A DNA stretch of 49,126 bases, from positions 1-49,126 of the forward strand of contig JAZDHS010000034.1 of the NCBI GenBank assembly GCA_043805735.1. Reading direction: 5' to 3'. This DNA is from Candidatus Omnitrophota bacterium. Lineage in GTDB: Bacteria > Omnitrophota > Gorgyraeia > JAFGHF01. The notes beneath the pieces are model-generated. The model worked only from the letters and a program-made list of their open reading frames with translations, did not search any database and was not told the origin of the DNA. A program made the translations under genes and the position numbers. Positions 1-20,203 of this stretch are shown here, piece by piece. Within the stretch, counting starts at the first letter, position 1. Each line of letters opens with the position of its first letter.

Positions 1-422
1 GCCGCATATTCGCTGCGTTCATTGCGGTCTCTGGGGATTCCCGACTCACCCATGGTCAAGCCGATGATGCTGGCGTGATATTGTTTGGCTAGTGGGACGT
101 AGGTATTGAGTTTATCGAGCTTAGCGGTCGTTGAATTAATAATTGCCTTTTTACGAGCCAGGCGCAAACCAGCTTCAATGACCGCGGGCTTAGTACTATC
201 CAAGGCTAAGGTTACGCTGGTGACTTCCTGAATCGTTTCTACCAGCCATTTCATTGCTTCGACGGCATCGGCGACCGCCGGACCAACATTAACATCTAAG
301 GCATCAGCTCCGGCCGCCACTTGCCTCTTGGCCAAATCCTGAATTACTGTTTTATCTTTAGCGGCAATCGCCCGGCCGACATCTTTAAACATACCGTTGA
401 TACGTTCACCGATAACTAACAT
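1..422 (-). CDS. acsE: Methyl-THF:corrinoid Fe-S protein methyltransferase (partial, runs off the left edge)
   Basis: Read manually: ATG at 422 gives MLVIGERINGMFKDVGRAIAAKDK...GADALDVNVGP...LALDSTKP...IINSTT, a pterin-binding AcsE N-terminus; directly follows acsD. Confidence 0.93.
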   Translation of the reverse strand, partial: MLVIGERINGMFKDVGRAIAAKDKTVIQDLAKRQVAAGADALDVNVGPAVADAVEAMKWLVETIQEVTSVTLALDSTKPAVIEAGLRLARKKAIINSTTAKLDKLNTYVPLAKQYHASIIGLTMGESGIPRDRNERSEYA

Positions 423-425
423 GGC

Positions 426-1394
426 TTAACCTTTCTTCATTAAATTATCTATTGTTTTTTTCACAATCTCGATCGCTTTGGGGTGACGCATCGTTAAAAT
501 ATCTGCGCCACAAAGAAGCATGGAAATCGCGGTGGTTGCTTCCCAAAGCGGCCCGCGTTCTTTCTCCGAACCCCATTCGGGATGCTCGACCTGCGTACCC
601 TTGGCCTCTTTGGCCCGCCAGGCTTCCTGGCCGACAAAACAAATAAACGGCATCGCCAGCATTTTGTCACCCATCAGCGCCGCTAAACGGGCCCGCTCCA
701 TAATCGAATAGGCATACTCCATGCCATAGCCGAGCGCGCCGATAGTCGGGTTGATCGCGATTTTATTACTGTCAAAACCCATATCCGTAATTAAGATATT
801 TACCTGTTTGGCAATATTGATATCAATCGGCGATTCGGCAATGATGCTGTGGCCGTCGGCAAGGCAGGAGGCGGTCAGCGTTTTGTAATTATCTTCGCTG
901 GCATCGCCGAACAAACAGTTTTCGCCTTTGGCCGCCTGCGCGCATTCAGGCAAAACCAGATTATCTTTTTCGGTATGATCCGAGCCCAGAATAATTAACG
1001 GAACCCCTACGGCCTTTAGTATCGCTTTAACCAGCCCGGCGGCCTGATCCGCGGAAGTATCGCCAAAATCGGGATGGATACTGCGCAAACGTAAACATAA
1101 AAGTTCAGCCTGGTATTCATTAACGCATTTTCTGGCCCATTCTACTGGGTTATTGAGCACGTCTTGAAACGGTTCCTTCAAGGCCACGGGCCAATCAGTG
1201 GGCTCAGAGTCGATAATTTCCATGGCGATAACGGGCCGATAAGGCATTTCACCTTCACCAAAAAGATACGGCAAGGTGCTTTCACCGCCTACTACTATCT
1301 TTGACGCGCGCGTGCCGCCTTCTTCTTTAGTGGCGCCGATCGCAAGCGTATTAATTTTGTGCGACCACTTTTCTTTCACTTGTTCAAGCGGCAT
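426..1394 (-). CDS. acsD: Corrinoid Fe-S protein small subunit (CdhD/AcsD)
   Basis: VVGGESTLP, ESPIDINIAKQ, ALGYGMEY, MRHP motifs; start MPLEQ at 1394 preferred over 1409. Confidence 0.95.
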   Translation of the reverse strand: MPLEQVKEKWSHKINTLAIGATKEEGGTRASKIVVGGESTLPYLFGEGEMPYRPVIAMEIIDSEPTDWPVALKEPFQDVLNNPVEWARKCVNEYQAELLCLRLRSIHPDFGDTSADQAAGLVKAILKAVGVPLIILGSDHTEKDNLVLPECAQAAKGENCLFGDASEDNYKTLTASCLADGHSIIAESPIDINIAKQVNILITDMGFDSNKIAINPTIGALGYGMEYAYSIMERARLAALMGDKMLAMPFICFVGQEAWRAKEAKGTQVEHPEWGSEKERGPLWEATTAISMLLCGADILTMRHPKAIEIVKKTIDNLMKKG

Positions 1395-2145
1395 ATGCTT
1401 CCCCCTCATAGATTTTTCTGACTGCCTGCGCTGCCTTTGACTTCTCCGAAAGAGCGCTGAGATCGGCGTTCTTTACGCTTATCGCCATTACCTGTTCATC
1501 GTGAGGGATGACTCCAGCTAAGGGAATAGCTATTTTTTCAATTTCTTTCTTCAGTGCCCCGGCATTCTCCGGAGCGCGGTTAATGACTAAGCGTTTTTGC
1601 TTTACCTGAATGTCTAACTCCTTCACGAGCTCTAAAATACGCTGCGCCGAACGAAGCCCTACTATGCTATAGTCGCTGACCACGAATAGGGTATCAATTT
1701 TTCTGGTCGTACGCCGCGAAAGGTGTTCCATCCCGGCCTCATTATCAATCACCAGATAGTCGTAGCCTTTACTCAATTTATCGATCAGTGTACGCAAGAG
1801 GTTATTGACAAAACAATAGCATCCCGGACCTTCCGGGCGCCCCATTACCAACAGGTCAAACCCCTTACCTTCCACCACCGCCTCTTGCAGGCGGTATTGC
1901 AAATAGCGGTCTTTGGTTGTCCCTGAAGGAATCGTGGAAGGGTTTTTAGATATCTCATCAACTATACCGACAATGCTTTCTTCTGACCTAACCCCCAGCG
2001 CCTGATCCAGGTTTGCATTGGGGTCAGCATCAACCGCTAATACCGATTTATCTTGGTGAGCCTTTAAAAGCTGTTGGATAAAAAGCGCGGTAAAAGTGGT
2101 TTTACCGGTTCCGCCTTTACCGCAGACTGCAACGGTGTAGCTCAT
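1384..2145 (-). CDS. acsF: CooC/AcsF-type Ni-insertion ATPase
   Basis: GKGGTGKT Walker A, DADPNANL, GPGCYC metal motif, DNEAGMEH; located in the acs cluster. Confidence 0.9.
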   Translation of the reverse strand: MSYTVAVCGKGGTGKTTFTALFIQQLLKAHQDKSVLAVDADPNANLDQALGVRSEESIVGIVDEISKNPSTIPSGTTKDRYLQYRLQEAVVEGKGFDLLVMGRPEGPGCYCFVNNLLRTLIDKLSKGYDYLVIDNEAGMEHLSRRTTRKIDTLFVVSDYSIVGLRSAQRILELVKELDIQVKQKRLVINRAPENAGALKKEIEKIAIPLAGVIPHDEQVMAISVKNADLSALSEKSKAAQAVRKIYEGEAYAA

Positions 2146-4103
2146 TGTTTGGCCACTCCCACTGAAGGAAAACGGCTTAAGTCGGTATGCGGGAAAAAGA
2201 GCGCCGCAACATATTCATCCATATACGCGGATTCTACGCTAAGCTCAATATACGTCATCTTTTTGGCGATTTCTTCGGCTTCTTTTTTTGCCTCATAAGA
2301 AAGCAGGATTTCCCGCGCCCCGACCAATGAACTGTTGCCGATAAAGACAATCTTGTTGCGTTTTAAATCGGGAAGTAACCCGATAGCAATCGCCTTGTCG
2401 ATATCCAAATAGGTGCCGAATCCTCCGGCGATGTAAAATTGGCCGATATCCTCAAAACTTAAATTAAGTTTCTTTAAAAGTATAGCGCAGGCAGCATAAA
2501 TCGCCCCTTTAGAACGCTTGAGGTTATCGATATCGGCCTCAGTAATCACGATATCGTAATCAACGTCGGCGTCTTCTTTACGCACCAGCACAAAGGCCTT
2601 GCCTTGTTCCGTATCGATAATCCGCGTAGAACGAATCGGCGTAGAGAACTTTCCATTACGTTCAATGATGCCGGTTTTTAGTAGCTCGGCCAGGCAATCG
2701 ATATAGCCTGAACCGCAAATACCCCGCGGCTTGGTTTCGCCTATCGTAATTACATTTACCGTTCCCGAATCAGCTATCGCTACACGTTGAATCGCTCCAG
2801 AGGTTGCGCGCATGCCGCAGGTAACGCCGCTTCCTTCAAAGGCCGGACCCGCCGAAGCCGCGCAGGATACCATCCACTCTTTATTACCTAATACAATTTC
2901 ACCGTTTGTGCCCACATCGATAAGCATCGTCAGCTTCTTCGCCCGGTTAAGCCCGCTGGCGAGCACTCCGGCGGTAATATCCCCGCCGACATAAGTGCTT
3001 ACCCCCGGCACGCAGGAAAGCAGTCCCCGCAGATTTACTTTTATCCCGGTCTCGGCGGCCCGGATGACCGGGACAAAATTGGCCGTGGACACATACGGTT
3101 CGCTGCGAATAAATTTCGGGTCGACCCGAAGCAGTAAATGCACCATCGTGGTATTGCCGGCGCAGATAATGCCATTAACATCGTTCAAATTAATTTCGTG
3201 TTCCTTGGTTAATTCTTTAATAATTGAATTGATATTATCGATTACGGCGTGATGCAACTTTTCTAATCCGTCTTCTTCGCTGGCATAAATTATGCGAGTA
3301 ATCACGTCACTGCCGAAAGTGGCCTGCTTATTATGAGTAACCTTAGCCCCCAGCACTTCTTTGGTATTAAGGTTAACCAGCTGTCCGGATACGGTAGTGG
3401 TACCGATATCCAAGGCGATACCGTAATTTCTCTCTGACGTATCTCCCGGTTCAACCGACACAATTTCTACAGTGCCGTTTCTTTTGCCTAAAAGTACAGT
3501 TACCCGCCAATCGCTCTCGCGCAGGAGCCTCCCCAGGCGCTTGATGTTGGTCAAACCGGTTTGCATGATCGGGATATCCCGATTTTTTTTGATTTCCCGG
3601 TAGAGCCTTTCCAGGTCGCTGATGGTATCGCTTAAGTTCGGCGGGGGCAGCTCCAGATAGAGTTTTGTCGCCAGCGGGCTATGCGCAAACAAATCTTCTT
3701 TAATCACCGCCTGGCCCGTGGCAACGTCCACGGCCTGGCTGTACATACCCTTCAAGCGCAAAAGCTGCAGGTCTTCATCGGACACGGTTTCTAAATCCAG
3801 GCGTGACTCCGGCGGAACCTCTACCTCCGCATCGCTATGTACGGTAGTTTGGCAAGCCAGGACATATCCTTTTTGTCGCTCAGCGAGGGAGATCCTGCCT
3901 GAAGGCTCAGTCTTCAGATCGCCCCTTTTAATAATCACCTTGCAGCGTCCGCACACGCCATCGCCACCACAACTGGAGTAGATGTGTATCCCCGACTCTA
4001 CCGCTGCCGACAAAAGGTCTCGGCCTTTATTGACCTCGATGATAGTAGTTTGAGGATGATAAAAAGTAACAGTACAGGTTTGTTTCTCCATCAGACCTTT
4101 CAT
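2142..4103 (-). CDS. acsV: Corrinoid reductive activator (RACo/AcsV; [2Fe-2S] plus ASKHA ATPase)
   Basis: CGGDGVCGRC...LACQ [2Fe-2S]; DIGTTT, DVGTNGE, AGPAFEG, GICGSG ASKHA motifs. Confidence 0.93.
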   Translation of the reverse strand: MKGLMEKQTCTVTFYHPQTTIIEVNKGRDLLSAAVESGIHIYSSCGGDGVCGRCKVIIKRGDLKTEPSGRISLAERQKGYVLACQTTVHSDAEVEVPPESRLDLETVSDEDLQLLRLKGMYSQAVDVATGQAVIKEDLFAHSPLATKLYLELPPPNLSDTISDLERLYREIKKNRDIPIMQTGLTNIKRLGRLLRESDWRVTVLLGKRNGTVEIVSVEPGDTSERNYGIALDIGTTTVSGQLVNLNTKEVLGAKVTHNKQATFGSDVITRIIYASEEDGLEKLHHAVIDNINSIIKELTKEHEINLNDVNGIICAGNTTMVHLLLRVDPKFIRSEPYVSTANFVPVIRAAETGIKVNLRGLLSCVPGVSTYVGGDITAGVLASGLNRAKKLTMLIDVGTNGEIVLGNKEWMVSCAASAGPAFEGSGVTCGMRATSGAIQRVAIADSGTVNVITIGETKPRGICGSGYIDCLAELLKTGIIERNGKFSTPIRSTRIIDTEQGKAFVLVRKEDADVDYDIVITEADIDNLKRSKGAIYAACAILLKKLNLSFEDIGQFYIAGGFGTYLDIDKAIAIGLLPDLKRNKIVFIGNSSLVGAREILLSYEAKKEAEEIAKKMTYIELSVESAYMDEYVAALFFPHTDLSRFPSVGVAKQ

Positions 4104-4136
4104 TAATATGGAATTATGAAAGTCTACCCTTCAGGG

Positions 4137-4355
4137 TTAGGCCTTTTCTTTTTTCTGCACCCGTAGCCAATACAAAAATGCCCCCGGTGCCTGCAATAAA
4201 ACAATGATGATACCCCATAATACTTTGTCAGTGGTACTTTTAAAGTCACGACGCGCCCAGTCAGCTAGCTTGCTGATCCAAAACAAAAACAAAATAATAG
4301 CGAGTCCTATTATCAGGACGGAAGATATCCCGGTAGCCACAATGCCTTCAGTCAC
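4137..4355 (-). CDS. Small 2-TM membrane protein (PLDc_N-like)
   Basis: 72 aa with two hydrophobic helices and a D..RRDF...KVLW...PG..LYW pattern; GAGGAGG RBS before GTG. Confidence 0.7.
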   Translation of the reverse strand: MTEGIVATGISSVLIIGLAIILFLFWISKLADWARRDFKSTTDKVLWGIIIVLLQAPGAFLYWLRVQKKEKA

Positions 4356-4374
4356 CTTAAGCCTCCTCGCTGAA

Positions 4375-4414
4375 TTAGTTAGCTGGTTTACTGGTTAGCT
4401 AGTTAGCTGGTTAG
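4375..4414. repeat. Degenerate 8-bp tandem repeat (TTAGCTGG-like, about 4.5 units)
   Basis: ttag-ttagctgg-tttactgg-ttagctag-ttagctgg-ttag, overlapping the acsC stop. Confidence 0.8.
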
Positions 4415-5748
4415 TGTTTCAGAGTTTTCAGAAATGATGGTATCCCTGAGGCCTCTTTGGGCCCAACAAGCACCTTCCAACCCGAATCTTCTTCCAATTT
4501 TCCGCTCAAAACTGCTACGTAGCCCGGTATAACCACTGCCTGGTGCGAAACTTTATCTTTAATGCCGCATTCCTGCAAGGTTTTGGCGATAGTTTCGGCG
4601 GTAAACTTCTCCGCGGCCCAGGCAGTCAGTACACTCATGCCATCGGCCAAGACCGCAATTATATAAGCGGGCACCCGGCTTGCCTCTACTTCCGATTCAA
4701 CTGTATAATAGGTTAGAGAGAAATTAGTGGTAACTAATACTGGCGAGTCCTTACTTACCGCGCCGATTTCATAGACCTTAGCTTCTACCTGCAGCGGTTT
4801 TTGCGGGTCAGTGTAAATATTCTGCCGCACGGTCAAAAGCGGTAAAAGCTGCCAGGGCTCCAGGCCTTTCATCAGCACAATACCAGCGTATTTGGCAATA
4901 TAAACAGCGGCCTGGGCTACCTCATCGTAGGCATTCGTAGCTGTAGTCATTGCCAGCGTAGAATAACCTAAGGGCCGGAAACTTTTTTTGAGCGCCAGTC
5001 GCCGGATCTGGGTAAGATCGTTTAGTTTTTGGGTTATCGTTTTTTCTCCCGAATCAAGCACCAGGTCTTCTACCCCCAAGGCCTGAATTTTTTGCGTTAA
5101 CTCGGCCAGCTCATCAAGGGCTTGAGCCTTAACCGCCAGGGGCAATGAATATTCCTTAGCCAGCTGCGCCATAGCTTGATAATTATCTTTTGTCGCCGCG
5201 TAAAGCAAGGGACGCCTCTCTTTAGCTACGGCCACCGCTTCTTTCAAGATCTGGACATCTTCGCAGATCAGCGCAAGATTCATCTGGCTCAAGGCAACTG
5301 CTTTTTTTACCGCCTGCGTATAGACATCGGCCTTCCCGCTTGCGCATTTAAGCGCAATGATGTTTACTTCAATCCTTTGGCCCACGCGTTCAAATTTGAG
5401 CTTATTGACGGCAGCGATTTTTTTATCCAACTCCGCCGGAGCAAGTGTGTCTTCAAACAAAATACCGATCCCGGTCGGGTGATAAAATGTTTCCTCGTGG
5501 CGAAACATCACGGTCTCGTTACCAACAGCCAGCTTGTTTTCTCCGCTGCCGATCGTGACTAAACGTATCGGCGGACGCGAGGCGCTTTCTAGAGATTGTT
5601 TGGCCTGCTCGGATACATACGGGCATTTGCTTAATTCAACCTTTTTTGCGGCAATCTGCATCGCAAAGGCCAGGCAAGTAGGAAAACCACATTCCTTGCA
5701 GTTAGTTTTTGGTAACAACTTGTAGATGTCTAATCCGGATAATCCCAT
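4411..5748 (-). CDS. acsC: Corrinoid Fe-S protein large subunit (CdhE/AcsC)
   Basis: LPKTNCKECGFPTCLAFA [4Fe-4S], NIYTDPQKP, TTNFSLTY, SVLTAWAA. Confidence 0.96.
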   Translation of the reverse strand: MGLSGLDIYKLLPKTNCKECGFPTCLAFAMQIAAKKVELSKCPYVSEQAKQSLESASRPPIRLVTIGSGENKLAVGNETVMFRHEETFYHPTGIGILFEDTLAPAELDKKIAAVNKLKFERVGQRIEVNIIALKCASGKADVYTQAVKKAVALSQMNLALICEDVQILKEAVAVAKERRPLLYAATKDNYQAMAQLAKEYSLPLAVKAQALDELAELTQKIQALGVEDLVLDSGEKTITQKLNDLTQIRRLALKKSFRPLGYSTLAMTTATNAYDEVAQAAVYIAKYAGIVLMKGLEPWQLLPLLTVRQNIYTDPQKPLQVEAKVYEIGAVSKDSPVLVTTNFSLTYYTVESEVEASRVPAYIIAVLADGMSVLTAWAAEKFTAETIAKTLQECGIKDKVSHQAVVIPGYVAVLSGKLEEDSGWKVLVGPKEASGIPSFLKTLKH

Positions 5749-5779
5749 TGCGTATGTCCTTTTTTGGTGTAAGCTATAG

Positions 5780-7957
5780 TTACATCAACGGCTCCATTAA
5801 TAAAACAGGATGGCTCACTTTCTCCAGATGGACTAAAAGTTCTTCCGAAGCCGTAGCTACCGTTTCATCGCCAATCTTATCTAGAAGATCCGGGATTCCT
5901 TCTTCTTTACAACGCTCTTTTAATTTATCGCCCAGGACCTCTTTAAGTTCCTTGGGCATCCAAACCACGCGTTTTAACCCGCCGTCGGCGGAGAGAAATT
6001 TTTTACTCACCAGATAGAGCCTGCCTACACCCATGAAGCCGGGCGTCTGCGCGCCTCCGCCGACACTACCGGCCAGAGTAGAAAACGACATACCGCAGGG
6101 AGTCATACCGCTATACTCACGGTTGACCACCATAAAACCGTTGGCCTCCGGTAAAATCGCGATAATACATTCAAAACAGCCACAGGATGTTTCCGGAAAG
6201 GTCATAATCGAATATCCGTGAAACCGCTCCAGCGTTTTATTGGACTTGGTATTGACGAATTCATTTATTCCCCGCCATTCGCCGCGCACGGTGTCCAGGC
6301 ATTCGCCCTTTTTAATCGGCTGGTTTGGCCCAACCGGATTTAACTCAAATGAGGCCTTGGCATCTAAGAAGCTATAGGCGCCGCATAAACCGAGGCGCTC
6401 CGGTTTGACAATACACAAATGATTGGGCGCAAATGACTGGCAAAGGGTGCAGGAATAAAATTCGTCAACGCTCTCATCAGTCATCCCGGCCATTCGTTCA
6501 TCGCGTTCTTCATACGCTTTCTTGGCCTGGACAATATGCTTCTCTACCTCATCCTGTTTGGTAAAAATGCTCACCTGTACTTTATCAACAATGGCGCCGA
6601 AGGTGTCATGTAGCCGGGCATGAATAATTGTACCAAAGTGCTTGAGCTTAAATCCTTTCTTCTGCGCATCTTTACTGATCCGCACCCAGCACATATCGCG
6701 CTGGCCCATATGAAAAACACCCATGGCCTCGTTTAAGAAAGAGTGGACCTGGCGCTCAATAATCGGCTCAAAATCCTTCTGCATTTTCCTTCCGGCGGCC
6801 TCAACATAGATGCCTAAAGGAAGCGCGCCACCTTCCTGGGCGTCATCGATTTCCGGACCAATCACCTGAATTTTTCCGTCTTCAACCTGATCTAACTTTT
6901 TCATCTGCACATATTCAAAAGCGGTAGAATATTTTCCCCCGAATTGGATATACATCTGCTCTTTGCGTACCCGCTCTCCCTCAAAGGCCGCGGAATAGGC
7001 CACGGGGATAGGGATTTGCGATACCTTCACCTTCACTCCTCTTACCTCAATGCACACCGGCACGATCTTTTTGTAATCGCGTTCGCTTACTAGATGCTCG
7101 TAGGTACAGATCCCGCTGGGGCGGATTTCGGGGATATCGGTATCGGCAATGATCGGAAAACCCATATTAATCGCTCCGGCGCCGGTGGCGTATTTCATAT
7201 CGTCAACCTCGCCTAAGGTCAAACCAAAGGCAAAGACGCGGTCTTTGCAATACTTTAAACATTTAAGCGCCTCGCCTTTTTTATGGCCGCCAAAGGTTAA
7301 CGCCCCGCGGATCGCCCAATGTAAAGGGTAGATCGCCGAAATAGTGTCTCTTCCGTAAGGAACAATGTAAGAGTCCCAGCCCATTTCCACTTTTTCTTCT
7401 TTGAGCTGGTCAATAATACTTCTGCCGTTGGTAGATGAGCCGACAAAGGTTAAAATACTGCGTTTTTGGAACTCGCGCACGATCTCTACGGCGGTCTTGT
7501 TATCCGGAGCTGCCCCTAAAATGGCGGCAAAACCAGGCATTCTGCCGTCAACGAGCTGGATGCCTAAGGTGCGCAGAATTGTATCGGAAAAGAACCCGTT
7601 ACAATCCGGCTGCGGCTCTTGAGCGTATAAATAACGCAGCACCACAATTAACTCTTCGGCCAACAAAGTGGCGATTCCCGCATCCAGGGTATTTCCTAAG
7701 TAAGGAAGCCACAACTTCTCCGACGGTTCATCGTGCAAGAGCGATTTTACCTGCTCTAATATCGGAAGCATTTCAGCTAATGTTTTTACCTCAGCGCCTA
7801 AAAGGGCATAGGCCATCGGAAGGTAAAAAGCGGTTTCCGGAAAAGCAACAGCGGTATTTTTACCTTTTTCCTGAATAGCTTTAGTAAGGAAGTTTTCGGC
7901 TTCTTGCGCGATTTTGCGCGCGCCGCGCATTGCGGCCTGGGCAACTAATTTGGACAT
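5780..7957 (-). CDS. acsB: Acetyl-CoA synthase
   Basis: A-cluster motifs CTLCQSFAPNHLC...GLCGA and TSCGCFEC; bacterial N-terminal FPETAFYLP domain. Confidence 0.97.
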   Translation of the reverse strand: MSKLVAQAAMRGARKIAQEAENFLTKAIQEKGKNTAVAFPETAFYLPMAYALLGAEVKTLAEMLPILEQVKSLLHDEPSEKLWLPYLGNTLDAGIATLLAEELIVVLRYLYAQEPQPDCNGFFSDTILRTLGIQLVDGRMPGFAAILGAAPDNKTAVEIVREFQKRSILTFVGSSTNGRSIIDQLKEEKVEMGWDSYIVPYGRDTISAIYPLHWAIRGALTFGGHKKGEALKCLKYCKDRVFAFGLTLGEVDDMKYATGAGAINMGFPIIADTDIPEIRPSGICTYEHLVSERDYKKIVPVCIEVRGVKVKVSQIPIPVAYSAAFEGERVRKEQMYIQFGGKYSTAFEYVQMKKLDQVEDGKIQVIGPEIDDAQEGGALPLGIYVEAAGRKMQKDFEPIIERQVHSFLNEAMGVFHMGQRDMCWVRISKDAQKKGFKLKHFGTIIHARLHDTFGAIVDKVQVSIFTKQDEVEKHIVQAKKAYEERDERMAGMTDESVDEFYSCTLCQSFAPNHLCIVKPERLGLCGAYSFLDAKASFELNPVGPNQPIKKGECLDTVRGEWRGINEFVNTKSNKTLERFHGYSIMTFPETSCGCFECIIAILPEANGFMVVNREYSGMTPCGMSFSTLAGSVGGGAQTPGFMGVGRLYLVSKKFLSADGGLKRVVWMPKELKEVLGDKLKERCKEEGIPDLLDKIGDETVATASEELLVHLEKVSHPVLLMEPLM

Positions 7958-7978
7958 AGTTTACTCCTTAATGAGCAC

Positions 7979-8020
7979 TGGACTTATGTAGCAAACTAAA
8001 GCAGAGCGTACATAAGTCCA
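7979..8020. repeat. Perfect 12-bp inverted repeat upstream of acsB
   Basis: tggacttatgta-N18-tacataagtcca; no U-tract. Confidence 0.8.
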
Positions 8021-8057
8021 TCTTCTTTAGTTATTCTTCTTCAGCTTGTGTGAATTA

Positions 8058-8118
8058 ATCCCGAAGCATGCGCATCCCCTCTCTCTTAACACAAGGGGGA
8101 AGCGGTTATGCGAGGGAT
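8058..8118. repeat. Nested imperfect palindrome spanning the FNOR stop
   Basis: Arms atccc/gggat, gcat/atgc and tcccc/gggga. Confidence 0.55.
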
Positions 8119-11823: not shown

Positions 11824-11946
11824 CCCGCCCTTCCTTTCCCGGCGTTGCCAATATAACTATTGCTTCTGCTTAATGTTATCTGCATTGCTTAAACCTTTTT
11901 ACTGTACTTTTGCTTGTTATGCATTGCTTGTTTAGGAAGGGCGGGG
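11823..11946. mobile_element. MITE-like element, copy 1 (124 bp)
   Basis: 13-bp TIR CCCCGCCCTTCCT...AGGAAGGGCGGGG flanked by direct repeat TTCA (11819-22, 11947-50). Confidence 0.85.
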
Positions 11947-11947: not shown

Positions 11948-12715
11948 TCATTGATTAAGTTCCTCCTCCAAAAACCTTTTCAGCTCGGCAATTTTTTTCT
12001 CGCAGGCAAGCGGCGCTTTTATTCCTGTAGCGCCTTGATCTGACTTTAAAAAATCTTGGTCAAAATCTATAGCCGCGGCCAGTTGAATCTTTCCTAATTG
12101 CTTACGGATAAACTCGTTATCCCGCGCAGTTCTTATTTTGTTGCCCAGCGCATACACGCGCTTGATTCCGATATCACGGGCAAAAGTGGCAATCTTCTCA
12201 GCTGTGCCCAGCGAATTCAAAGAAGGCTCCACTACGATTAATACGGCATTGCAGGACTCCGCCGTTCCCCGGCCAAAATGTTCCACGCCCGCTTCCATAT
12301 CCAGGACAACATGCTCATTTTTTTTGACGATCAAATGCTGCAGCAGGTTTTTAATAAACGTATTCTCCGGACACATGCAGCCAGTGCCGCCTTCTTCCAC
12401 TGCGCCCATCACAATCAACTTGATATTGTCTTTTTGTTTGGAAAAGGCATCCGGGATATCATCAATTTTGGGATTGAGCTGAAAAAAGGACTTGTTGCCT
12501 TTTTCTACGCCCATGCGGCGGTGGATCAATTCCTCCATCTCGGCAATCGGCTGAATCTTGTCAAAATTTTCAAACCCCAGCGCGTGCGCTAAATTGGAAT
12601 CGGGATCGCAATCCACCGCCAAGACTTCTTTCGCTTCCTGCGCCAGGGCGCGGATAAAAAGGCTGGCCAGCGTGGTCTTGCCCACGCCGCCTTTTCCGCT
12701 AAAGGCTACTTTCAT
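11948..12715 (-). CDS. cooC: CODH Ni-insertion ATPase
   Basis: GKGGVGKT, DCDPDSNL, GTGCMCPEN, DMEAGVEH; upstream of cooS. Confidence 0.93.
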   Translation of the reverse strand: MKVAFSGKGGVGKTTLASLFIRALAQEAKEVLAVDCDPDSNLAHALGFENFDKIQPIAEMEELIHRRMGVEKGNKSFFQLNPKIDDIPDAFSKQKDNIKLIVMGAVEEGGTGCMCPENTFIKNLLQHLIVKKNEHVVLDMEAGVEHFGRGTAESCNAVLIVVEPSLNSLGTAEKIATFARDIGIKRVYALGNKIRTARDNEFIRKQLGKIQLAAAIDFDQDFLKSDQGATGIKAPLACEKKIAELKRFLEEELNQ

Positions 12716-13575
12716 TTGATCTGCATCTTAAAAGCATTGACTACGTTACGCATCAGTATAGTTACGGTAAGCGGCCCGACGCCGCCGGGAACCGGTGTAA
12801 TGAAACTGGCGCGTTCTTTGGCCGGTTCAAATTCGATATCTCCGACAATCTTATCACCCACGCGATTAATGCCGACATCGATGACAATCGCGCCCTCTTT
12901 TATCCAAGCGCCTTTAACCAACTCCGCCCTTCCCACGGCTACGACCAGGATCTCCGCCCGTTTTACGTGCTCCGGTAAAACACCTCTTTCTCCGGTAGCG
13001 ATATGGCAGACTGTGGTCGTGACAAATTCATTCAGTAATAATAAACTCAAAGGCTTACCGACAATTTCCGAATGTCCTACCACTACGGCTTCTTTGCCGT
13101 AAAGTTTCACCGGACAGGATTTAATCAATTCCATGGCTGCCTGGGCCGTACAAGGCGCCAGCTGCGAATCGCCTAAAAGCACATGCCCGAGATTTTCCGG
13201 ATGTATACCCTCGGCATCTTTCTCCGGGGTAATACTGCTCATCACCCGGCGGTGGTCGATCCCCTTCGGTAAAGGCAGCTGCACGATTATACCGGAAACG
13301 TCCTCTTTTTCATTCAGGACGCCGATGATATCGATGAGCTCTTTTTCTTGAGTATTCATGCCTAAAGTCTCAAGCATATATTCTATCCCCAGGGCCTCGG
13401 CATTTTTCTTCTGCGATTTGATATAAACCGCCGAAGCGGGATTATCTCCCACTTGTATACTGACCAAGCGCGGACTCCGGCCCGACTTTTGCCTGAGAGC
13501 GTCGAGTTCACTTTTTAGTCTTTCCTTAATCTGCTCGGCAATGACTTTTCCTTCTAACAATTGTGCGCCCATCAT
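12712..13575 (-). CDS. folD: Methylene-THF dehydrogenase/cyclohydrolase
   Basis: VQLPLP, PCT, GHSEIVGKP, IDVGINR, TPVPGGVGPLT. Confidence 0.96.
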   Translation of the reverse strand: MMGAQLLEGKVIAEQIKERLKSELDALRQKSGRSPRLVSIQVGDNPASAVYIKSQKKNAEALGIEYMLETLGMNTQEKELIDIIGVLNEKEDVSGIIVQLPLPKGIDHRRVMSSITPEKDAEGIHPENLGHVLLGDSQLAPCTAQAAMELIKSCPVKLYGKEAVVVGHSEIVGKPLSLLLLNEFVTTTVCHIATGERGVLPEHVKRAEILVVAVGRAELVKGAWIKEGAIVIDVGINRVGDKIVGDIEFEPAKERASFITPVPGGVGPLTVTILMRNVVNAFKMQIK

Positions 13576-13605: not shown

Positions 13606-14478
13606 TTAGCGCTTTATTTTGCTTAAGATCTCCCGTGTGGGCTCGACCTTATTTAGAGAATAGAAATGTAGGCCCGGGGCCCCGCCGGAGAGTAATTCGT
13701 TGCATTGTCCAACGGCAAATTCAACGCCGGCCCGATAAGTGCCTTGGGCATCACCATCCAGCGGTTTAAAGATGTCGTGGACACGCTCAGGGATTGTGGC
13801 TCCGCAAGCCTTGCAGAACCTAAGCAGGGTTTGATAGTCGGTGATCGGTATGATTCCGGGAAGAATCCGCACATTGACCCCGACTTTCTTTGCCCTTTCC
13901 AAGTAGGCGAAATAATCCTTATTGTCAAAGAAAAGCTGGGTGATCACAAACTCGGCTCCGGCATCGATCTTAATTTTTAAATATTTTGCATCAGTTTCCT
14001 TGTCGGGACAATTAATATGCCCTTCGGGAAAACCAGCCACCCCAATGCTGAAGAAGTCTCCACAAGAGCGGATCAGTTTAATCAGTTGATAACAGTACTC
14101 CAGGCCATCCGGAGCAGGAGTCCAAAACTTTTCGCCTTCCGGCGCATCTCCCCGCAGGGCCAGGATATTACAAATGTTTCTTTTTTTCATTTCTCCGATT
14201 ATAGTTTTCAACTGTTCTTTGCTGTGGCCCACACAAGTAAAATGATGCATCACTGGTACGCCGGTGCGCTTTTGTAAATCGTCGACAATCTGTATTGTAA
14301 GCTCTCTAGTGCTTCCACCGGCGCCATAGGTTACGGAAAACCAATCCGCCCCCAGGCCGGCATAAACTTCCGCGGTTTCCGGCAGTTTTTCTCTACCTTT
14401 TTCGGTTTTTGGCGGGAAAAACTCATAAGAATAGGTACGCTTTTTTTCTTTTAAAATGTCCGCGATTCTTCTAATCAT
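13606..14478 (-). CDS. metF: Methylene-THF reductase (E. coli-like type, no adjacent metV)
   Basis: SYEFFPPKT, SVTYGAGGSTR, LALRGD, ITQLFFD, GLHFYSLN. Confidence 0.95.
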   Translation of the reverse strand: MIRRIADILKEKKRTYSYEFFPPKTEKGREKLPETAEVYAGLGADWFSVTYGAGGSTRELTIQIVDDLQKRTGVPVMHHFTCVGHSKEQLKTIIGEMKKRNICNILALRGDAPEGEKFWTPAPDGLEYCYQLIKLIRSCGDFFSIGVAGFPEGHINCPDKETDAKYLKIKIDAGAEFVITQLFFDNKDYFAYLERAKKVGVNVRILPGIIPITDYQTLLRFCKACGATIPERVHDIFKPLDGDAQGTYRAGVEFAVGQCNELLSGGAPGLHFYSLNKVEPTREILSKIKR

Positions 14479-15128
14479 TTTCCCTCTCCTTTTTTTTCAA
14501 GTTCCGACATCATCTTCTGTTTCGTGATCATCAACACCTCGTCTTTAATCACACCTATCTCCACTTCCAGGGGGTCGAGGATTTCTCTTATTTCTATGAT
14601 AAAGGTTTTGTCAGCAATGTAATTCAAATTTATTTCTACGTTAATCAGGGCGGACTGAAAAGCAGCGGCAAGACACTCTAGCGCCACCCTCACATCACTT
14701 ACTAGTTTTATATTTCCCTTTTCGGCCAAAAGCGAGCATAATTTTATGGCCCGGAAGCAGGATTTACATACTTCCAGAGGTGCAATCAGCGCTTCTCGAA
14801 AAGCCTCCTGTAAAACTTCATCGCGTTTTTTGTTATCGGCTGCGCTTTCTTTGGCAAGGGCATAGGCACTGGCCACTTTCTTGTATCCGGCGACGTCTTC
14901 ATCAACCTGGCGCAACAAATGTTCGCGTAATTCCTCCGTAGAAGCCAGAGTTTTTTTAATCTCTTCTTCAACGGCTTTATATTTTTCTTTGCCCACGGTA
15001 AAATTGGCGACCATGCTCAATAGGGCCACACCGGCCGAAGCGACCAGCGCCGCGGCTGAGCCGCCACCGGGAGCGGGCTTTTTTGCGGCCAGGTCATCGA
15101 GGTACTTTTTCAAATCATCGGCATACAT
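14475..15128 (-). CDS. fchA: Methenyl-THF cyclohydrolase / cyclodeaminase (FTCD_C)
   Basis: LAAKKPAPGGGSAAA, GN..LVSD, NVEINL. Confidence 0.88.
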   Translation of the reverse strand: MYADDLKKYLDDLAAKKPAPGGGSAAALVASAGVALLSMVANFTVGKEKYKAVEEEIKKTLASTEELREHLLRQVDEDVAGYKKVASAYALAKESAADNKKRDEVLQEAFREALIAPLEVCKSCFRAIKLCSLLAEKGNIKLVSDVRVALECLAAAFQSALINVEINLNYIADKTFIIEIREILDPLEVEIGVIKDEVLMITKQKMMSELEKKGEGK

Positions 15129-15133
15129 AGTTT

Positions 15134-15532
15134 TTACTGAAATTGTTCCCTGACGCGGGGACGGTTAAGAAAATAAATAATCGCGATGTCTGCGGCAACA
15201 CTAAACGAAATCAGGTACATATTGCGAAAATACATCGGCTCTAAGCGATAACTATTAAAGATGGCTTTGCCGACCACCAGGTGCGGAATATCCACTATCG
15301 CTAAAAAGGTAATCAGGCCGCGGCCATACTCTTCCCGACGCAACAGCCGATAGCCGCCGATAATAAACCCCACCAGAATGGCTGAGGAAATCATCCAGAC
15401 CAGCTGCTGCGGTGGGTAATAGCGGACAAATAAATCGTAGGTAAAGACGCGCAGCGGAAAAAAAGCCTGTAACAGAAAGAAGCTATTGCATACTACCAGC
15501 CACATTCCAACCAAGAGCAGCCCTAAGTCCAT
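15134..15532 (-). CDS. Hypothetical 4-TM membrane protein
   Basis: Hydrophobic helices, C-terminal YFLNRPRVREQF; TAATG overlap with the fhs stop. Confidence 0.7.
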   Translation of the reverse strand: MDLGLLLVGMWLVVCNSFFLLQAFFPLRVFTYDLFVRYYPPQQLVWMISSAILVGFIIGGYRLLRREEYGRGLITFLAIVDIPHLVVGKAIFNSYRLEPMYFRNMYLISFSVAADIAIIYFLNRPRVREQFQ

Positions 15533-17235
15533 TAGAATAATCCTTCAACTTCACCGCGTTGGTTTAAGTCCATTTTTTCTCCCGCCGGATGCGTGGGTAA
15601 CCCCGGCATCGTGCGCATCGTGCCGCAGAGCGGATAAAGGAACCCCGCGCCTACCGATGCGCGCACGACGCGAATGGGCAGCGTAAAGTCTTTCGGCCGG
15701 CCTTTAAGCGCCGGGTCATGAGAGAGAGAAAGATGCGTCTTGGCCATACAAATCGGAAGCCGATCATATCCGAGGCGGGTAAATAGTTCGATATCTCTTT
15801 CGGCCTGGGCTTCATAATGCACCTCTTTTGCCCCGTAAATCTTAGTAGCGATGGTTTCAATCTTCTTTTTAATCGGCCAATCTAACGGATAAAGAAATTT
15901 AAAATTGGACTTTTTTTCGCAGGCCCGCACTACCGCCTGCGCCAATTCCTTACCGCCCAGGGAACCCTTGGCCCAGACCTCGCTTAACACGGCCTCCTCG
16001 GCCCCGGCGGCCAGCGCCTTTTTGCGGATTAATTCAATTTCATTTTTCGTATCGCTGGTAAAGTGGTTAATCGCCACCACTACCGGCACACCAAACAGTC
16101 GCATATTTTCAATCTGTTTTTCCAGATTGGCGCAACCGACTTCTAAGGCCGCTAAGTTTTCCTGCGCTAAGCCTGGATCTAAAGGCTTGCCGGCCACCAC
16201 CGTAAACTTTCCGGAGTGCATTTTCAGCGCCCGCACCGTGCAAACCATCACCACACAATTGGGCCTAAGGCCGCTTTCTCGGCATTTAATATCAAAAAAC
16301 TTCTCCGCTCCGCAATCCGCCCCAAACCCGGACTCGGTGACCACATAATCGGAAAGTTTCAGCGCCATTTTATCGGCGATAATCGAGTTGTTTCCGTGGG
16401 CAATATTGGCAAAAGGCCCGGCATGGACAAAACAGGGCGTATTATCCAGCGTCTGTAATAAATTCGGTTTTATCGCATCTTTTAAAAGCACCGCCATGGC
16501 TCCGGCAACTTTAATATCTTCCGTAGTGACTGCTTTACCGTCTTTGGTCATCGCCAAGATAATCCGGCCCAAACGCTGGCGCAAGTCTTTTAAGCCACTG
16601 GCCAGGGCAAGGATTGCCATTACTTCCGAGGCCACAGTAATGTCAAAACCGGAATCGCGCTCAAATCCGTCTTCCGGGCCGCCCAAACCGATTTTAATAT
16701 TGCGCAGGAATCTATCGGAAACATCAACCACGCGCCGCCACATTACCGTATTGGGGTCGATATTTAAAGGGTTTCTTTTATACATCGAGTTATCCAAAAA
16801 CGCGGCGCAGAGATTGTGGGCAAGCCCGACCGCGTGGACATCGCCGGTTAAATGCAGATTAAAATCCTCCATCGGCACGACCTGAGCATAACCTCCGCCG
16901 GCGGCCCCGCCCTTAATACCAAAGACCGGACCCAACGACGGTTGGCGGATACAGACTGAGGCCTGTTTACCGATGCGGTTCAAAGACATCGCCAGGCCAA
17001 TGGTGGTTACGGTCTTGCCCTCACCCAGGGGCGTAGGGGTAATCGCCGTGACATCAATGTATTTACCGTCTTTTTTATTTTTAACCCGCTCCAGAACGGA
17101 CAAGGATACCTTGGCTTTATAATTGCCGTAAAGCTCCAGCTCTTTCTCTTTAATGCCCAATATCCGCGCGATCTGCGTAATCGGTTTTAACCGCGCTTTA
17201 CGCACTATTTCTAAATCTGACGGCACTTTCTTCAT
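15532..17235 (-). CDS. fhs: Formate--tetrahydrofolate ligase
   Basis: TPTPLGEGKT, GIKGGAAGGGY, HAGPFANIAHG, TESGFGAD, TMPGLP. Confidence 0.97.
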   Translation of the reverse strand: MKKVPSDLEIVRKARLKPITQIARILGIKEKELELYGNYKAKVSLSVLERVKNKKDGKYIDVTAITPTPLGEGKTVTTIGLAMSLNRIGKQASVCIRQPSLGPVFGIKGGAAGGGYAQVVPMEDFNLHLTGDVHAVGLAHNLCAAFLDNSMYKRNPLNIDPNTVMWRRVVDVSDRFLRNIKIGLGGPEDGFERDSGFDITVASEVMAILALASGLKDLRQRLGRIILAMTKDGKAVTTEDIKVAGAMAVLLKDAIKPNLLQTLDNTPCFVHAGPFANIAHGNNSIIADKMALKLSDYVVTESGFGADCGAEKFFDIKCRESGLRPNCVVMVCTVRALKMHSGKFTVVAGKPLDPGLAQENLAALEVGCANLEKQIENMRLFGVPVVVAINHFTSDTKNEIELIRKKALAAGAEEAVLSEVWAKGSLGGKELAQAVVRACEKKSNFKFLYPLDWPIKKKIETIATKIYGAKEVHYEAQAERDIELFTRLGYDRLPICMAKTHLSLSHDPALKGRPKDFTLPIRVVRASVGAGFLYPLCGTMRTMPGLPTHPAGEKMDLNQRGEVEGLF

Positions 17236-17239
17236 TTTT

Positions 17240-17938
17240 TTAGTTACTCCCTAGTTCTGTTTTTATTTTCTCTAATTTCTTTAAATATTTTTCACAATCA
17301 CTCACCGTATAAAGTGGCGTGCCTAAACCACAAGGCAAGGTCAGCAAATCGCCCTCTTGAAAATCCTTAACGTCTTCTTGTTTCTCTACGCCCCAGGAAA
17401 TTTTTTTTCCGCTACGGTAACGGCTGTATTTGGTCAGGTCGTACTTAGAGGCATCGAAACTGATAATGTCGATGGGCGCGGAAAATAAGCGGTCCCAATC
17501 CATATTGCCGCAGGTATGTACGCCGGAAGTTACCGCGAAGCTGGAAAATAACGCCGCCCATAATTGCCCAAAATCAACCCCGGATTGGCCCAAGGCCGGC
17601 TCATCCAGAAAAAGGATCACCTCTTTGGCCTTCAAGCCGTCCATAATCGCGCTAATGTGCTCTAAAGGCCGTTGCACGGCTTCATCCTGTTTATATCCGC
17701 CGAGCATCAGCGTAGCCGGCCCGACGCATTGGATTTTGACAATGTCAAAGTTATTTTTTTTAAACGCCTCTAAGCAACTCAATCGCCCGGGGTGCTTAAT
17801 GTACTCCAGCATCGCGTCACCCTTTTTGGGCAGCTCGGGTAAAAAAGGGATGTCGTGCTTAAGGCTATAGGCCAGCGCCGCATCCACGTCCTCCAGGGGT
17901 AACGAGCCGACTTGAGTAATGATTTTACCTTTAAGCAT
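17240..17938 (-). CDS. Short folate-independent 'core' methionine synthase, MesB-like (232 aa)
   Basis: GSLP, PFLPELP, VKIQCVGP, FLDEP, GVHTCG..DW, ISFDA, WG, PCGLG with putative Zn ligands His/Cys/Asp/Cys; start taken as ATG at 17938, 2 nt after the folE stop. Confidence 0.7.
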   Translation of the reverse strand: MLKGKIITQVGSLPLEDVDAALAYSLKHDIPFLPELPKKGDAMLEYIKHPGRLSCLEAFKKNNFDIVKIQCVGPATLMLGGYKQDEAVQRPLEHISAIMDGLKAKEVILFLDEPALGQSGVDFGQLWAALFSSFAVTSGVHTCGNMDWDRLFSAPIDIISFDASKYDLTKYSRYRSGKKISWGVEKQEDVKDFQEGDLLTLPCGLGTPLYTVSDCEKYLKKLEKIKTELGSN

Positions 17939-17940
17939 GT

Positions 17941-18498
17941 TTAAGATTTTATCAGAGCCAAAGTTTCTGACCGGGTTTTGGAATTGGTACGGAAAATTCC
18001 TCTGACCGCGCTGGTCACGGTGCAAGCGCCGGGTTTTTTCACGCCGCGCATCGACATACAAAGATGATCGGCTTCAATAACTACCATCACTCCCTTAGGC
18101 TTGAGTTTTTTCATAATCACATCGGCAATCTGGGTAGTCAGCCTTTCTTGAACCTGCAGGCGTTTAGAAAATATATCGACGACTCTAGCGAGTTTGCTCA
18201 ATCCGGTCACTCGGTTTTCCTGAGGCACATAGGCCACATGGGCCTTGCCGACAAAAGGCAGGAGATGGTGTTCGCAGACACTATAGAGAGGGATATTTTT
18301 TATTAAGACAATCTCATCATGCCCTTCGCCAAGCAACACCTCCAGCTCTCGCGATGGGTCTTGTTTTATGCCGCTAAAAATTTCCTCATACATATCGGCA
18401 ACGCGCTGGGGGGTATCCAAAAGGTCGGTGCGCTCGGCATTTTCCCCAATCGCCTCCAAAATCATCTTCACTGCCTTGATAATTTTCGGTTTATCCAT
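17941..18498 (-). CDS. folE: GTP cyclohydrolase I
   Basis: [37 protein letters not shown]. Confidence 0.96.
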
Positions 18499-18503
18499 AT
18501 TTT

Positions 18504-20054
18504 TCAATGCTTGAAGTGGCGCATGCCGGTAAAAATCATGCTGATGTTGAATTTATCACAGGCGGCAATAATTTCGGCGTCGCCGATAGAGCCGCCCGGC
18601 TGAATAATCGCACCGATACCGGCCTGGTGCGCCTGTTCAATGGCATCAGGCTTAGGGAAAAAGGCATCGCTGGCCAGGCTGGCGTCTTTGGTTTTAAAGT
18701 CGGCCTTACGGCAGGCAATAATCGTGGAATCGACCCGGGACATCTGCCCGGCGCCCACGCCAACGGTCTTGGTCCCTTGCGCCAGGACGATCGCGTTACT
18801 GCGGACGTGTTTGACAATCTTCCAGGCAAACAACAGCGACTCCAGTTCATTTTTGCTCGGAGCCCTTTTCGTCACTACTTTTAAGTCGCTCATCTGGACC
18901 ATCGCCACATCCATATCCTGCACCAAGAGACCGCCGACCACCTTCTTATAGTCTTTCTCAGCGCAGCTGGTCTTTTTAAAATTAGGAACTTCTAACAGCC
19001 GCAGGTTTTTCTTTTTCGCGAAGAGCTCTTTTGCCTCTTCGTCATAGCCGGGCGCGATAATACACTCCACAAAATCGGCTTCCTTTAAAATTACCTCGGC
19101 CAGTTTTTTGTCTACCCTACCGTTAAAACCGACGATGCTGCCGAAGGCGCTTAAGCGGTCGCAGTCTAAGGCATCGAGATAGGCCCCAGATAATGAATCG
19201 GACACGGCCGCGCCGCAAGGGTTAGTATGTTTAATGATACTGGCCGCCGGCGCGTCAAACTCCTTGACGATTTCAATGGCGGCATTTAAATCGAGGATGT
19301 TATTAAACGAGAGCTCCTTGCCTTGCAGCTGCCTGGCGTTACTAATACCGGATTCTTGCGCTGCCGGATCGCGATAAAAGGCCGCCTTCTGGTGCGGGTT
19401 TTCACCGTAGCGTAAATCCTGCGCTTTGATAAAAGAAAGCTCAAGCTTCTCCTGAGACTTACCGGCATAATTACTCAAATAATTATAGATTGCTCCGTCG
19501 TATTCCGCGGTTCGCTTAAACACCTCTACGGCCAATTTCTTGAGCGTTTCCTCTGAAAGCGCGCCGTTATTCCTTTTGAGCTCGCTAATCACATCGGGAT
19601 AGGTGCGCGGATCGGTAATTACCGCTACCGAGTGATGGTTTTTCGCCGCGCTTCTGAGCATCGACGGTCCACCGATATCAATATTTTCGATTGCCTCCTC
19701 CAGCGTTACGTCCGCCTTGGCCACCGTTTTTTCAAAGGGATAGAGGTTGACTACAACCATATCGATCATTTCAATATCATGGGCCTGGGCCTGTTCCATA
19801 TGCTCTTTATTATCGCGCAGTGCCAGGAGCCCACCGTGTATTTTGGGATGCAGGGTTTTTACGCGCCCGTGCATCATCTCCGGAAACCCCGTGTATTCAG
19901 AAACGTCTTTAACGGTTATACCCAGGCTCTTAATGGACTTGGCCGTGCCCCCGGTAGATAGTATCTCCACGCCAAATTGATTCAAGGTTTTTACCAAATC
20001 TTCGATTCCGCTTTTGTCCGAAACACTGATTAAGGCTCGCTTAATTTTGACCAT
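18504..20054 (-). CDS. purH: AICAR transformylase / IMP cyclohydrolase
   Basis: [52 protein letters not shown]. Confidence 0.98.
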
Positions 20055-20065
20055 TATGCCCCCTT

Positions 20066-20098
20066 AAAAAATAAAAGACCTGTTTAAAAACCCAGGCC
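20066..20098 (-). terminator. Intrinsic terminator (riboswitch expression platform)
   Basis: Minus strand GGCCUG...CAGGUC stem followed by UUUUAUUUUUU; the 5' arm overlaps aptamer P3. Confidence 0.75.
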
Positions 20099-20150
20099 GA
20101 CGATTTTTTCTTCATACCTCACCATGGTCGCTTCCATGCTGCCAGAGGTA
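20090..20150 (-). ncRNA. ZMP/ZTP (pfl) riboswitch-like aptamer
   Basis: Minus strand: P1 UACCUC/GAGGUA, CUGGC junction, P2 CAUGG/CCAUG, A-rich linker, P3 AUCGUCGGCCUGGGU; lies upstream of purH, the canonical context. Confidence 0.75.
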
Positions 20151-20174
20151 AATATTGCTCTTTTTAAGGCCTTT

Positions 20175-20203
20175 ATTATAGAACGGAATGCAGCAGAAAA
20201 CAA
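20175..20203 (-). promoter_or_regulatory. Sigma70 promoter of the purH/C1/acs operon
   Basis: TTGTTT-17-TATAAT. Confidence 0.7.

Follow-up and report, generated by a model that had tools for sequence, protein, structure and literature searches.

A compact leader RNA, probably of the ZTP riboswitch lineage, in front of purH and a Wood-Ljungdahl gene cluster of Candidatus Omnitrophota

The regulon of the ZTP riboswitches, named after the mono- and triphosphates of 5-aminoimidazole-4-carboxamide riboside (ZMP and ZTP), comprises purH, fhs, folD, glyA and pfl, and an intrinsic terminator that overlaps the aptamer is the known ON-switch design of these RNAs. In the structures described, ZMP stacks beneath the pseudoknot, in contact with a U in the P3 loop, while the distal pseudoknot pair closes away from the pocket (PMC7337938), and the pocket of the F. 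ulcerans RNA is formed by U16, G17, G63, C69 and G71 (PMC12304844). As for the genes with which we are concerned here, Wood-Ljungdahl acetogenesis without formate dehydrogenase is already known from Omnitrophota (Seymour et al. 2023, PMC10066038), and the methionine synthase MesB, for which a score of 173 bits to DET0516 is the membership criterion, clusters with acs genes (Price et al. 2021, PMC7857596); all four papers are cited from excerpts of their text. The stretch of DNA under study, hereafter the window, comprises 49,126 nt of contig JAZDHS010000034.1 from a Candidatus Omnitrophota genome of 1.31 Mb that is 96.7% complete (G000, its own genome; other G, L and f labels denote relative genomes, loci and families). 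A Wood-Ljungdahl gene cluster headed by purH occupies the minus strand of positions 1-20203, and we have analysed the leader in front of purH, for which a preliminary description had proposed a promoter, a ZTP-type aptamer and a terminator placed at the head of the whole cluster.

The results obtained evidence that the purH leader is a real conserved RNA, beyond what chance would produce. Altogether 26 distinct copies were collected in Candidatus Omnitrophota, with scores of 56-92 bits to a covariance model (R1) that was built, like the alignment A1, from 16 distinct copies; copies outside this training set score equally within that range (68.7-70.9 bits in f9 and 82.6-87.5 bits in f55). About 40 positions are near-invariant in copies drawn from two classes and no fewer than four families, the linker varies in length, and hairpins are inserted in three copies (L053, L081 and L082). 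The proposed helices have standard pairs in 99.8% of the pair cells of the 26 copies, as compared to 26-55% when the partners are slid, and the covariation score was reached by none of 500 shuffles, two P1 pairs being changed on both sides. Within the class, an R1 score of at least 56 bits is found in 13 of 151 genomes, corresponding to three genomes of f1 and to all five of both f9 and f27; three of the ten genomes of its own family are positive, and the element is common to 3 of the 29 purH loci of relatives that have upstream sequence (L007, L008 and L009). Two genomes of f55, which belongs to another class, carry it as well, and metagenome-assembled genome records with the same leader are labelled Candidatus Omnitrophota or, for some, 'uncultured Planctomycetia'. 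No second copy was found in its own genome, where the next R1 score is 20.5 bits, which is consistent with gcvT not being found there. Concerning the way in which copies were gathered, 6 of the 16 matches returned from the genome collection by a pattern of the invariant parts were true copies, 10 being dropped as GC-rich coding sequence of unrelated bacteria that has neither the upstream run of the P1-P2 junction (J1/2) nor a terminator, and a looser pattern, with three P2 pairs left free, gave true copies in 10 of 10 matches in metagenomes. Three R1 matches of 25-31 bits (L083, L085 and L087) resemble neither the variant nor a canonical ZTP riboswitch and were taken as noise.

The aligned sequences establish homology between this element and the canonical ZTP riboswitches of sister families. 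Canonical copies above the cut-off of the Rfam ZMP-ZTP model (RF01750, gathering at 39 bits) are present in 9 of the 151 class genomes at 40-62 bits, the four that were aligned scoring 45.6-62 bits, and their bearers belong to sister Omnitrophota families (L060, L062-L065, L084, L086, L088 and L089). They have in common with the variant an identical P2 stem, a P3 helix that agrees nearly letter for letter, the terminator design and the target gcvT, seen for instance in L064. The two forms split by family and never occur in one genome (9 versus 13 of 151). An intermediate form in f9 aligns with RF01750 over its full length (1-86) at 27.5 and 28.2 bits, below the cut-off, and reciprocally R1 gives the canonical riboswitches 23-28 bits. 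The architecture is likewise that of RF01750, with P1/P2 and P3 subdomains joined by a variable linker, a pseudoknot between J1/2 and the P3 loop, a conserved run at the pocket, within the P3 loop and the 3' strand, a terminator competing with P3 and the pseudoknot, and a position before purH and gcvT. Within this frame the variant keeps the C15/U16 step, the first three J1/2 bases of the pseudoknot, the pseudoknot strand of the P3 loop and the U and G run that follows.

A distinct scenario results from the comparison of the remaining parts. Whereas the canonical copies of the class pass RF01750 and head pfl, gcvT and a nuoE/nuoF/hydA operon, with none seen before purH or a Wood-Ljungdahl cluster among the class copies examined, the leader of the window stays below about 12 bits, against the cut-off of 39. 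In the variant, P1 has Watson-Crick pairs where the consensus forms a two-by-two internal loop (Rfam 13-14/44-45) and is 5 pairs long instead of about 10, J1/2 has 5 nt instead of the consensus 10, and Rfam position 69 is always U and not A. The fourth, distal pseudoknot pair (G20-C71) is lost because position 71 is no longer C, being impossible in 25 of 26 copies and possible as G-U in L076; the other three pairs are present in all 26, in one of them with a G-U. As a whole, these findings indicate that the leader probably belongs, in a compact and diverged form, to the ZTP (pfl-motif) lineage, with an intrinsic terminator attached. The ZTP-type aptamer of the preliminary description was right in kind, as seen from the homology, the pocket residues, the terminator overlap and the classic target genes, although the element is not a member of RF01750.

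In respect to the canonical riboswitches themselves, we note that those of f8 (58-62 bits; L099 in G086:C17 and L060 in G016:C52) head a [FeFe] hydrogenase set of the bifurcating type, with nuoE-like and nuoF-like genes and two copies of hydA, and that, to our knowledge, this set is not a target within the described ZTP regulon.

The identity of the ligand has to be considered in the light of the residues that are kept. Mapped by letters and spacing, the pocket residues of the F. ulcerans RNA would correspond to Rfam U16, G17, G68, C74 and G76, and 25-26 of the 26 copies retain each of U16, G17, G68, C74, U75 and G76, one G157 copy having A at position 68. Variant subclasses of other riboswitch families change ligand, and the systematic changes at Rfam 13-14/44-45, 69 and 71, the short J1/2 and the RF01750 scores under the cut-off could reflect a switch to another purine- or folate-related metabolite. 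However, all reported ZMP-contact residues are kept, the purH and gcvT contexts are those of the canonical ZTP riboswitches, and the two forms replace each other by family with no coexistence, so that a change of ligand appears quite unlikely.

Several observations weigh against the assignment of the leader to a ZTP-lineage switch. The preliminary description had itself named the lack of a covariance-model hit, along with that of a ZMP response, as a reason to give up the proposal, and formally the first of these is what was obtained: the RF01750 search of the leader returned no match in the window at gathering, and at E<=10 there was again none in 19950-20350, only unrelated noise from small nucleolar, micro- and long non-coding RNA families at 12-17 bits (weakest 12.1). 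Across its own genome RF01750 gives three weak matches, all on other contigs and none at the purH leader. RF01750 being silent on it, the leader is therefore not classed as a member of that family; any other Rfam identity was rejected, as the matches were at noise level only, and no Rfam family reaches gathering in the purH loci of 20 relatives. The minimum-free-energy fold of the leader is no better than that of shuffles (z = +1.08), its centroid structure retains only the terminator-like hairpin, and this terminator, with 6 pairs, is the weakest of 23. The order of purH and the Wood-Ljungdahl genes is kept without the element in G008, G019 and G005, just three of the ten family genomes having it. 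Moreover, covariation is thin (2 of 18 pairs, with P2 invariant) and some of the invariance was imposed by the fixed search patterns with which copies were found, and for these two reasons support for the structure comes mainly from the ZTP homology. Finally, ligand binding could be altered, because the P1 internal loop is replaced and J1/2 is about halved.

The absence of a covariance-model hit, the weak terminator and the ordinary fold energy of the window copy, together with the lack of the element in seven of ten family members that have otherwise the same operon, would suit an element that senses no ligand, either a protein-bound leader or attenuator or a decaying ZTP relic beside an ordinary weak terminator. 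Such a relic would not hold some 40 near-invariant positions, the reported pocket residues among them, nor the terminator overlap in 23 of 23 copies, and we regard this explanation as very improbable.

The expression platform and the genes downstream are those expected for a ZTP-lineage switch. An overlapping terminator hairpin with a U-tract is present in all 23 distinct copies tested, with energies from -7.8 to -19.0 kcal/mol, and in each of them the 5' strand of the terminator is the 3' strand of the aptamer pseudoknot and P3; the window copy has the weakest hairpin. Hexamers equivalent to the promoter-like site of the window are found at the same spacing and position in L007, L008 and L009; the site itself was missed by the consensus scan because its -35 box fits only 3 of 6 positions. 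In the arrangement of promoter, aptamer and terminator proposed earlier, the hairpin and U-tract are thus present, the promoter is read by eye only, and the aptamer stands as a conserved RNA and not as an RF01750 match. In 25 of 26 copies the element is followed by one of two genes, either purH, as in f1 and the f2 relative G010, or gcvT, as in f9, f27, f55 and most metagenome copies, one G157 copy heading a full gcvT-gcvH-gcvPA-gcvPB-lplA operon.

Concerning the proposed switching, ZMP and ZTP would accumulate when 10-formyl-tetrahydrofolate is short, and their binding would hold the pseudoknot and P3 together; the terminator would then be blocked and the polymerase would read into purH, folE, the MetE-like gene, fhs, fchA, metF and folD. 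From the arrangement of these parts we infer an ON switch through which ZMP/ZTP gates purH-folE-fhs-fchA-metF-folD.

At one locus, L103 (G157:C45), two variant aptamers lie 1.15 kb apart (5611-5679 and 6762-6830). One heads the glycine-cleavage operon and the other, which has A for the pocket G at Rfam 68, precedes a lipid-A acyltransferase-like gene.

A further question is how far downstream such control would extend, as the preliminary description had placed the whole Wood-Ljungdahl operon under the riboswitch. Every gene of 1-20203 is on the minus strand, giving 18 co-directional genes from purH to acsE. Between purH and cooC the neighbours overlap or are separated by no more than 30 nt, as had been described, and the larger intergenic gaps are those of cooC-cooS (124 nt), FNOR-acsB (128 nt) and acsC-acsV (307 nt). 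A pattern scan also agrees with the view that there is no clear internal terminator, all 12 terminator-like sites of the minus strand being within coding sequence and none in the gaps; in the same scan terminator-like sites total 32, versus 26.1 +/- 6.6 in shuffles, and promoter-like sites likewise show no excess.

The cooC-cooS and FNOR-acsB gaps are indeed filled by repeats, both of them copies of repeat families of its own genome. The former contains an element resembling a miniature inverted-repeat transposable element (MITE), with 26 complete copies in its own genome, mostly of 124 nt, whose terminal inverted repeats are CCCCGCCCTTCC and its complement; a second copy in the window lies at about 21670-21791 and 24 more are elsewhere in the genome. 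At all 26 sites it is found directly behind a start codon (ATGAA 23, ATGAG 2 and GTGAA 1), with the matching TGAA or TGAG direct repeat, and the old ATG before it opens a short open reading frame (ORF), about 20 codons long. In 24 of 26 copies a new GTG start takes its G from the far arm, which also provides a purine-rich run, and an in-frame ORF of at least 60 aa follows 21 of the 26. A start-codon-specific insertion element that rebuilds translation signals seems unusual. Its GC-rich arms could mask the new GTG start unless the short ORF is translated. As all 26 sites have the host ribosome-binding site and start codon upstream of the element, transcription must pass through it, and the possibility that it acts as a terminator was rejected on the same ground.

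The element in the FNOR-acsB gap, which matches no Rfam family, has five copies in its own genome (one in the window, one in C22, two in C24 and one in C48) and occurs also in the purH-folE gap of L013 (G009). The sequence of its hairpin stem varies between copies, yet the pairing is kept. Depending on the copy, it separates rpsH-like from rplF-like genes or tgt-like from yajC-like genes, follows a clpP-like gene, precedes acsB, or lies in a 5' untranslated region behind a TTGACA-17-TATATT promoter. A promoter function was rejected, there being copies behind a strong promoter and between rpsH-like and rplF-like genes; possibly it is a processing, stabilising or translation-control element.

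The comparison with relatives supports one part of the operon proposal and not another. Whether or not the leader is present, G002, G004, G008, G019 and G005 all show purH-folE-232aa-fhs-...-folD and then the acs genes, and G010 agrees up to the contig end. In G002 the FNOR-acsB gap has only about 20 nt, and the two repeat-filled gaps of the window are insertions into junctions that are tight elsewhere. The contiguity of the modules, on the other hand, is broken in G002, G004 and G008. In G002, where the leader is present, four opposite-strand genes ([NiFe]-hydrogenase small and large subunits, hycI and a metV-like gene) lie between folD and metV-metF-cooS, for which reason the carbon monoxide dehydrogenase/acetyl-CoA synthase (CODH/ACS) genes of this genome must have a promoter of their own. 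Unrelated genes of the same strand are inserted between the modules in G004 and G008. What can be retained of the earlier proposal is the tight linkage of the methyl-branch and folate genes to purH, whereas control over CODH/ACS would have to cross two repeats, and the modules are split in G002. Read-through into cooS and acsB-acsE is nevertheless plausible, since no terminator-like site follows folD and the gap elements are transcribed through elsewhere. The relatives speak for separate control of the carbonyl-branch genes, and probably the CODH/ACS genes also have, or once had, their own promoter.

In the same relatives, the acsB match of L092 (G008) and L094 (G019) ends at about residue 600 of 725, some 1.9 kb before acsC, and in these genomes acsB may hold an insertion or differ in its C-terminal part.

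The most far-reaching explanation is that of a single riboswitch-gated transcript from purH to acsE, in which CODH/ACS would serve as one-carbon (C1) supply: acetyl-CoA cleavage would provide the methionine methyl group and the C1 units of purines, and the CO released would be oxidised by CooS-CooF-FNOR. The co-directional genes with no intergenic terminator-like site on their strand, the necessary transcription through the cooC-cooS repeat at its 26 sites, the presence of the FNOR-acsB element within a ribosomal-protein gene row and a 5' untranslated region, and the short gap of G002 are as expected for one transcript. These have to be set against the opposite-strand hydrogenase genes, hycI and metV-like gene that split the modules in the leader-bearing G002, the unrelated inserts of G004 and G008, and a weak promoter-like site at 11879-11850, within the cooC-cooS repeat.

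As to the metabolic part of this explanation, Fdh-alpha (TIGR01591), molybdopterin oxidoreductase (PF00384), PFL and GcvT were not found in the 96.7%-complete genome, and neither were MetE (PF01717) and the homocysteine domain of MetH (PF02574); glyA and ack are present. Given that completeness, the missing genes are counted as not found and not as absent, fdh among them, the lack of which had been noted for the window. This inventory, with a gene of MetE-like fold in the cluster, fits a C1-supply role, and an ON switch at low 10-formyl-tetrahydrofolate would suit the C1-producing direction of the pathway better than the C1-consuming one. However, metF, acsE, ack and a membrane-bound hydrogenase are what is expected for ordinary formate- or CO-dependent acetogenesis, going by the excerpt of PMC10066038. 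The genome is indeed similar to the Omnitrophota acetogens presented there in its small size, a Wood-Ljungdahl pathway without formate dehydrogenase, a group-4 [NiFe] hydrogenase and acetate kinase; unlike here, the word riboswitch does not occur in that paper, and the excerpt describes no cluster headed by purH-folE with such a leader. The C1-supply role suggested in the preliminary description is thus compatible with the gene inventory, which formate- or CO-dependent acetogenesis would fit equally. Overall, we consider the single transcript with CODH/ACS as C1 supply to be rather unlikely. The fuller proposal, that a minimal ZTP-lineage switch puts the complete Wood-Ljungdahl machinery and a hitherto undescribed short MetE-fold methionine synthase under the 10-formyl-tetrahydrofolate alarmone, with CODH/ACS as an acetyl-CoA-cleaving C1 and methyl supply and not (only) an acetogenic sink, we regard as unlikely.

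The methionine synthase of these proposals would be the 232-aa protein encoded between folE and fhs, which had been described as a MesB-like synthase. It has no Pfam or NCBIfam match, and none to PF01717 or to PDB sequences at E<=1. The gene is syntenic in 6 of 6 relatives, and H141, C143 and C203, which may be zinc ligands, are invariant in 8 of 8 orthologues. An AlphaFold2 model has a low predicted local distance difference test score (59.4), and among its Foldseek matches MetE and a Methanosarcina corrinoid methyltransferase rank best, at E values of 2.5e-3 to 4e-3, none being <=0.001. Its neighbours in a protein atlas are unannotated 'URO-D domain' clusters, and archaeal PF01717 clusters at 0.87 are a lead only. 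These observations make the protein a candidate corrinoid-dependent methionine synthase, the MesB-like assignment being weakly supported by the low-confidence fold match to MetE (E = 2.5e-3) and not by PF01717 or PDB sequence. The Dehalococcoides MesB system, which goes with an incomplete Wood-Ljungdahl pathway, as far as the excerpt of PMC7857596 goes (Price et al. 2021), is similar in the small, here putatively MetE-related gene near acs, in that no MetE or MetH is found, and in a possible acetyl-CoA origin of the methionine methyl group. It differs in that metF, acsE and cooS, present in the genome studied here, are lacking in D. mccartyi according to the same excerpt. In addition, the protein has 232 aa, versus 306 and 326 aa for the PF01717-bearing core methionine synthase clusters of the atlas (0.87).

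Irrespective of how far transcription proceeds, the curated ZTP model misses a whole sub-lineage, in 13 of 151 class genomes and a second class, and for this reason ZTP riboswitches are under-counted in riboswitch censuses of candidate phyla. The aptamer is naturally trimmed and would show that the fold can dispense with its P1 internal loop, with the distal pair of the pseudoknot and with one half of J1/2. A C1-shortage signal would here be linked to a block next to CODH/ACS in which the methyl branch of the Wood-Ljungdahl pathway is complete. A search of an open-access collection, in which the original ZTP paper and the structure papers are not contained, gave no paper that connects ZTP riboswitches to the Wood-Ljungdahl pathway, to acetogens or to Omnitrophota. 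Should read-through into acs be real, one could directly test in which direction, and for what purpose, the pathway runs in host-dependent nanobacteria.

The coordinates of the leader parts, the genes and the repeats are collected in Table 1.

Table 1. Features of the purH leader and of the gene cluster (window positions)
Feature	Position	Strand	Basis or remarks
Promoter-like site	20175-20203	-	-35 TTGTTT 20203-20198, 17-nt spacer, -10 TATAAT 20180-20175; read by eye
Putative compact ZTP-derived aptamer	20085-20154	-	R1 covariance model 80.3 bits, own sequence in training set
Aptamer P1	20149-20145 with 20120-20116	-	
Aptamer pseudoknot	J1/2 strand 20143-20141 with 20097-20095	-	
Aptamer P2	20138-20134 with 20127-20123	-	followed by A-rich linker
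Aptamer P3	20106-20102 with 20092-20088	-	
Intrinsic-terminator-like hairpin and U-tract	20066-20098	-	stem 20098-20093 with 20082-20077, -7.8 kcal/mol; U-tract 20076-20066
purH (AICAR formyltransferase/IMP cyclohydrolase)	18504-20054	-	NF002049 737.5 bits; PF01808
folE (GTP cyclohydrolase I)	17941-18507	-	NCBIfam/Pfam; 4-nt overlap with purH
232-aa conserved protein, URO-D/MetE-superfamily-like	17240-17938	-	invariant columns, low-confidence fold, synteny
fhs (formate-tetrahydrofolate ligase)	15532-17235	-	NCBIfam/Pfam
132-aa hydrophobic (membrane) ORF	15134-15532	-	counterpart in 2 of 6 relatives
fchA	14475-15128	-	NCBIfam/Pfam
metF	13606-14478	-	NCBIfam/Pfam
folD	12712-13575	-	NCBIfam/Pfam
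cooC-type maturation ATPase	11948-12715	-	PF01656 and other P-loop matches, name from context; 4-nt overlap with folD
MITE-like repeat, cooC-cooS gap	11823-11946	-	124 nt, 12-nt terminal inverted repeats, TGAA direct repeats at both ends; last G is that of the GTG start of cooS
cooS	9913-11823	-	NCBIfam/Pfam
cooF	9399-9911	-	NCBIfam/Pfam
FNOR-type flavoprotein	8086-9402	-	NCBIfam/Pfam
Structured intercistronic repeat, FNOR-acsB gap	7964-8103	-	outer helix around variable hairpin; ends at acsB Shine-Dalgarno
acsB	5780-7957	-	NCBIfam/Pfam
acsC	4411-5748	-	NCBIfam/Pfam
72-aa membrane ORF in acsC-acsV gap	4137-4355	-	
acsV	2142-4103	-	NCBIfam/Pfam
Second cooC-like gene	1384-2145	-	NCBIfam/Pfam
acsD	426-1409	-	NCBIfam/Pfam
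acsE	3-422	-	truncated by window end

Upstream of the cluster and on its strand (28148-38495 and 40347-40988), the window encodes a membrane-bound group-4 [NiFe] hydrogenase, Mrp-type antiporter subunits, hyp genes and a Rex-type repressor, and an Nfn-like pair also lies upstream of the Wood-Ljungdahl cluster.

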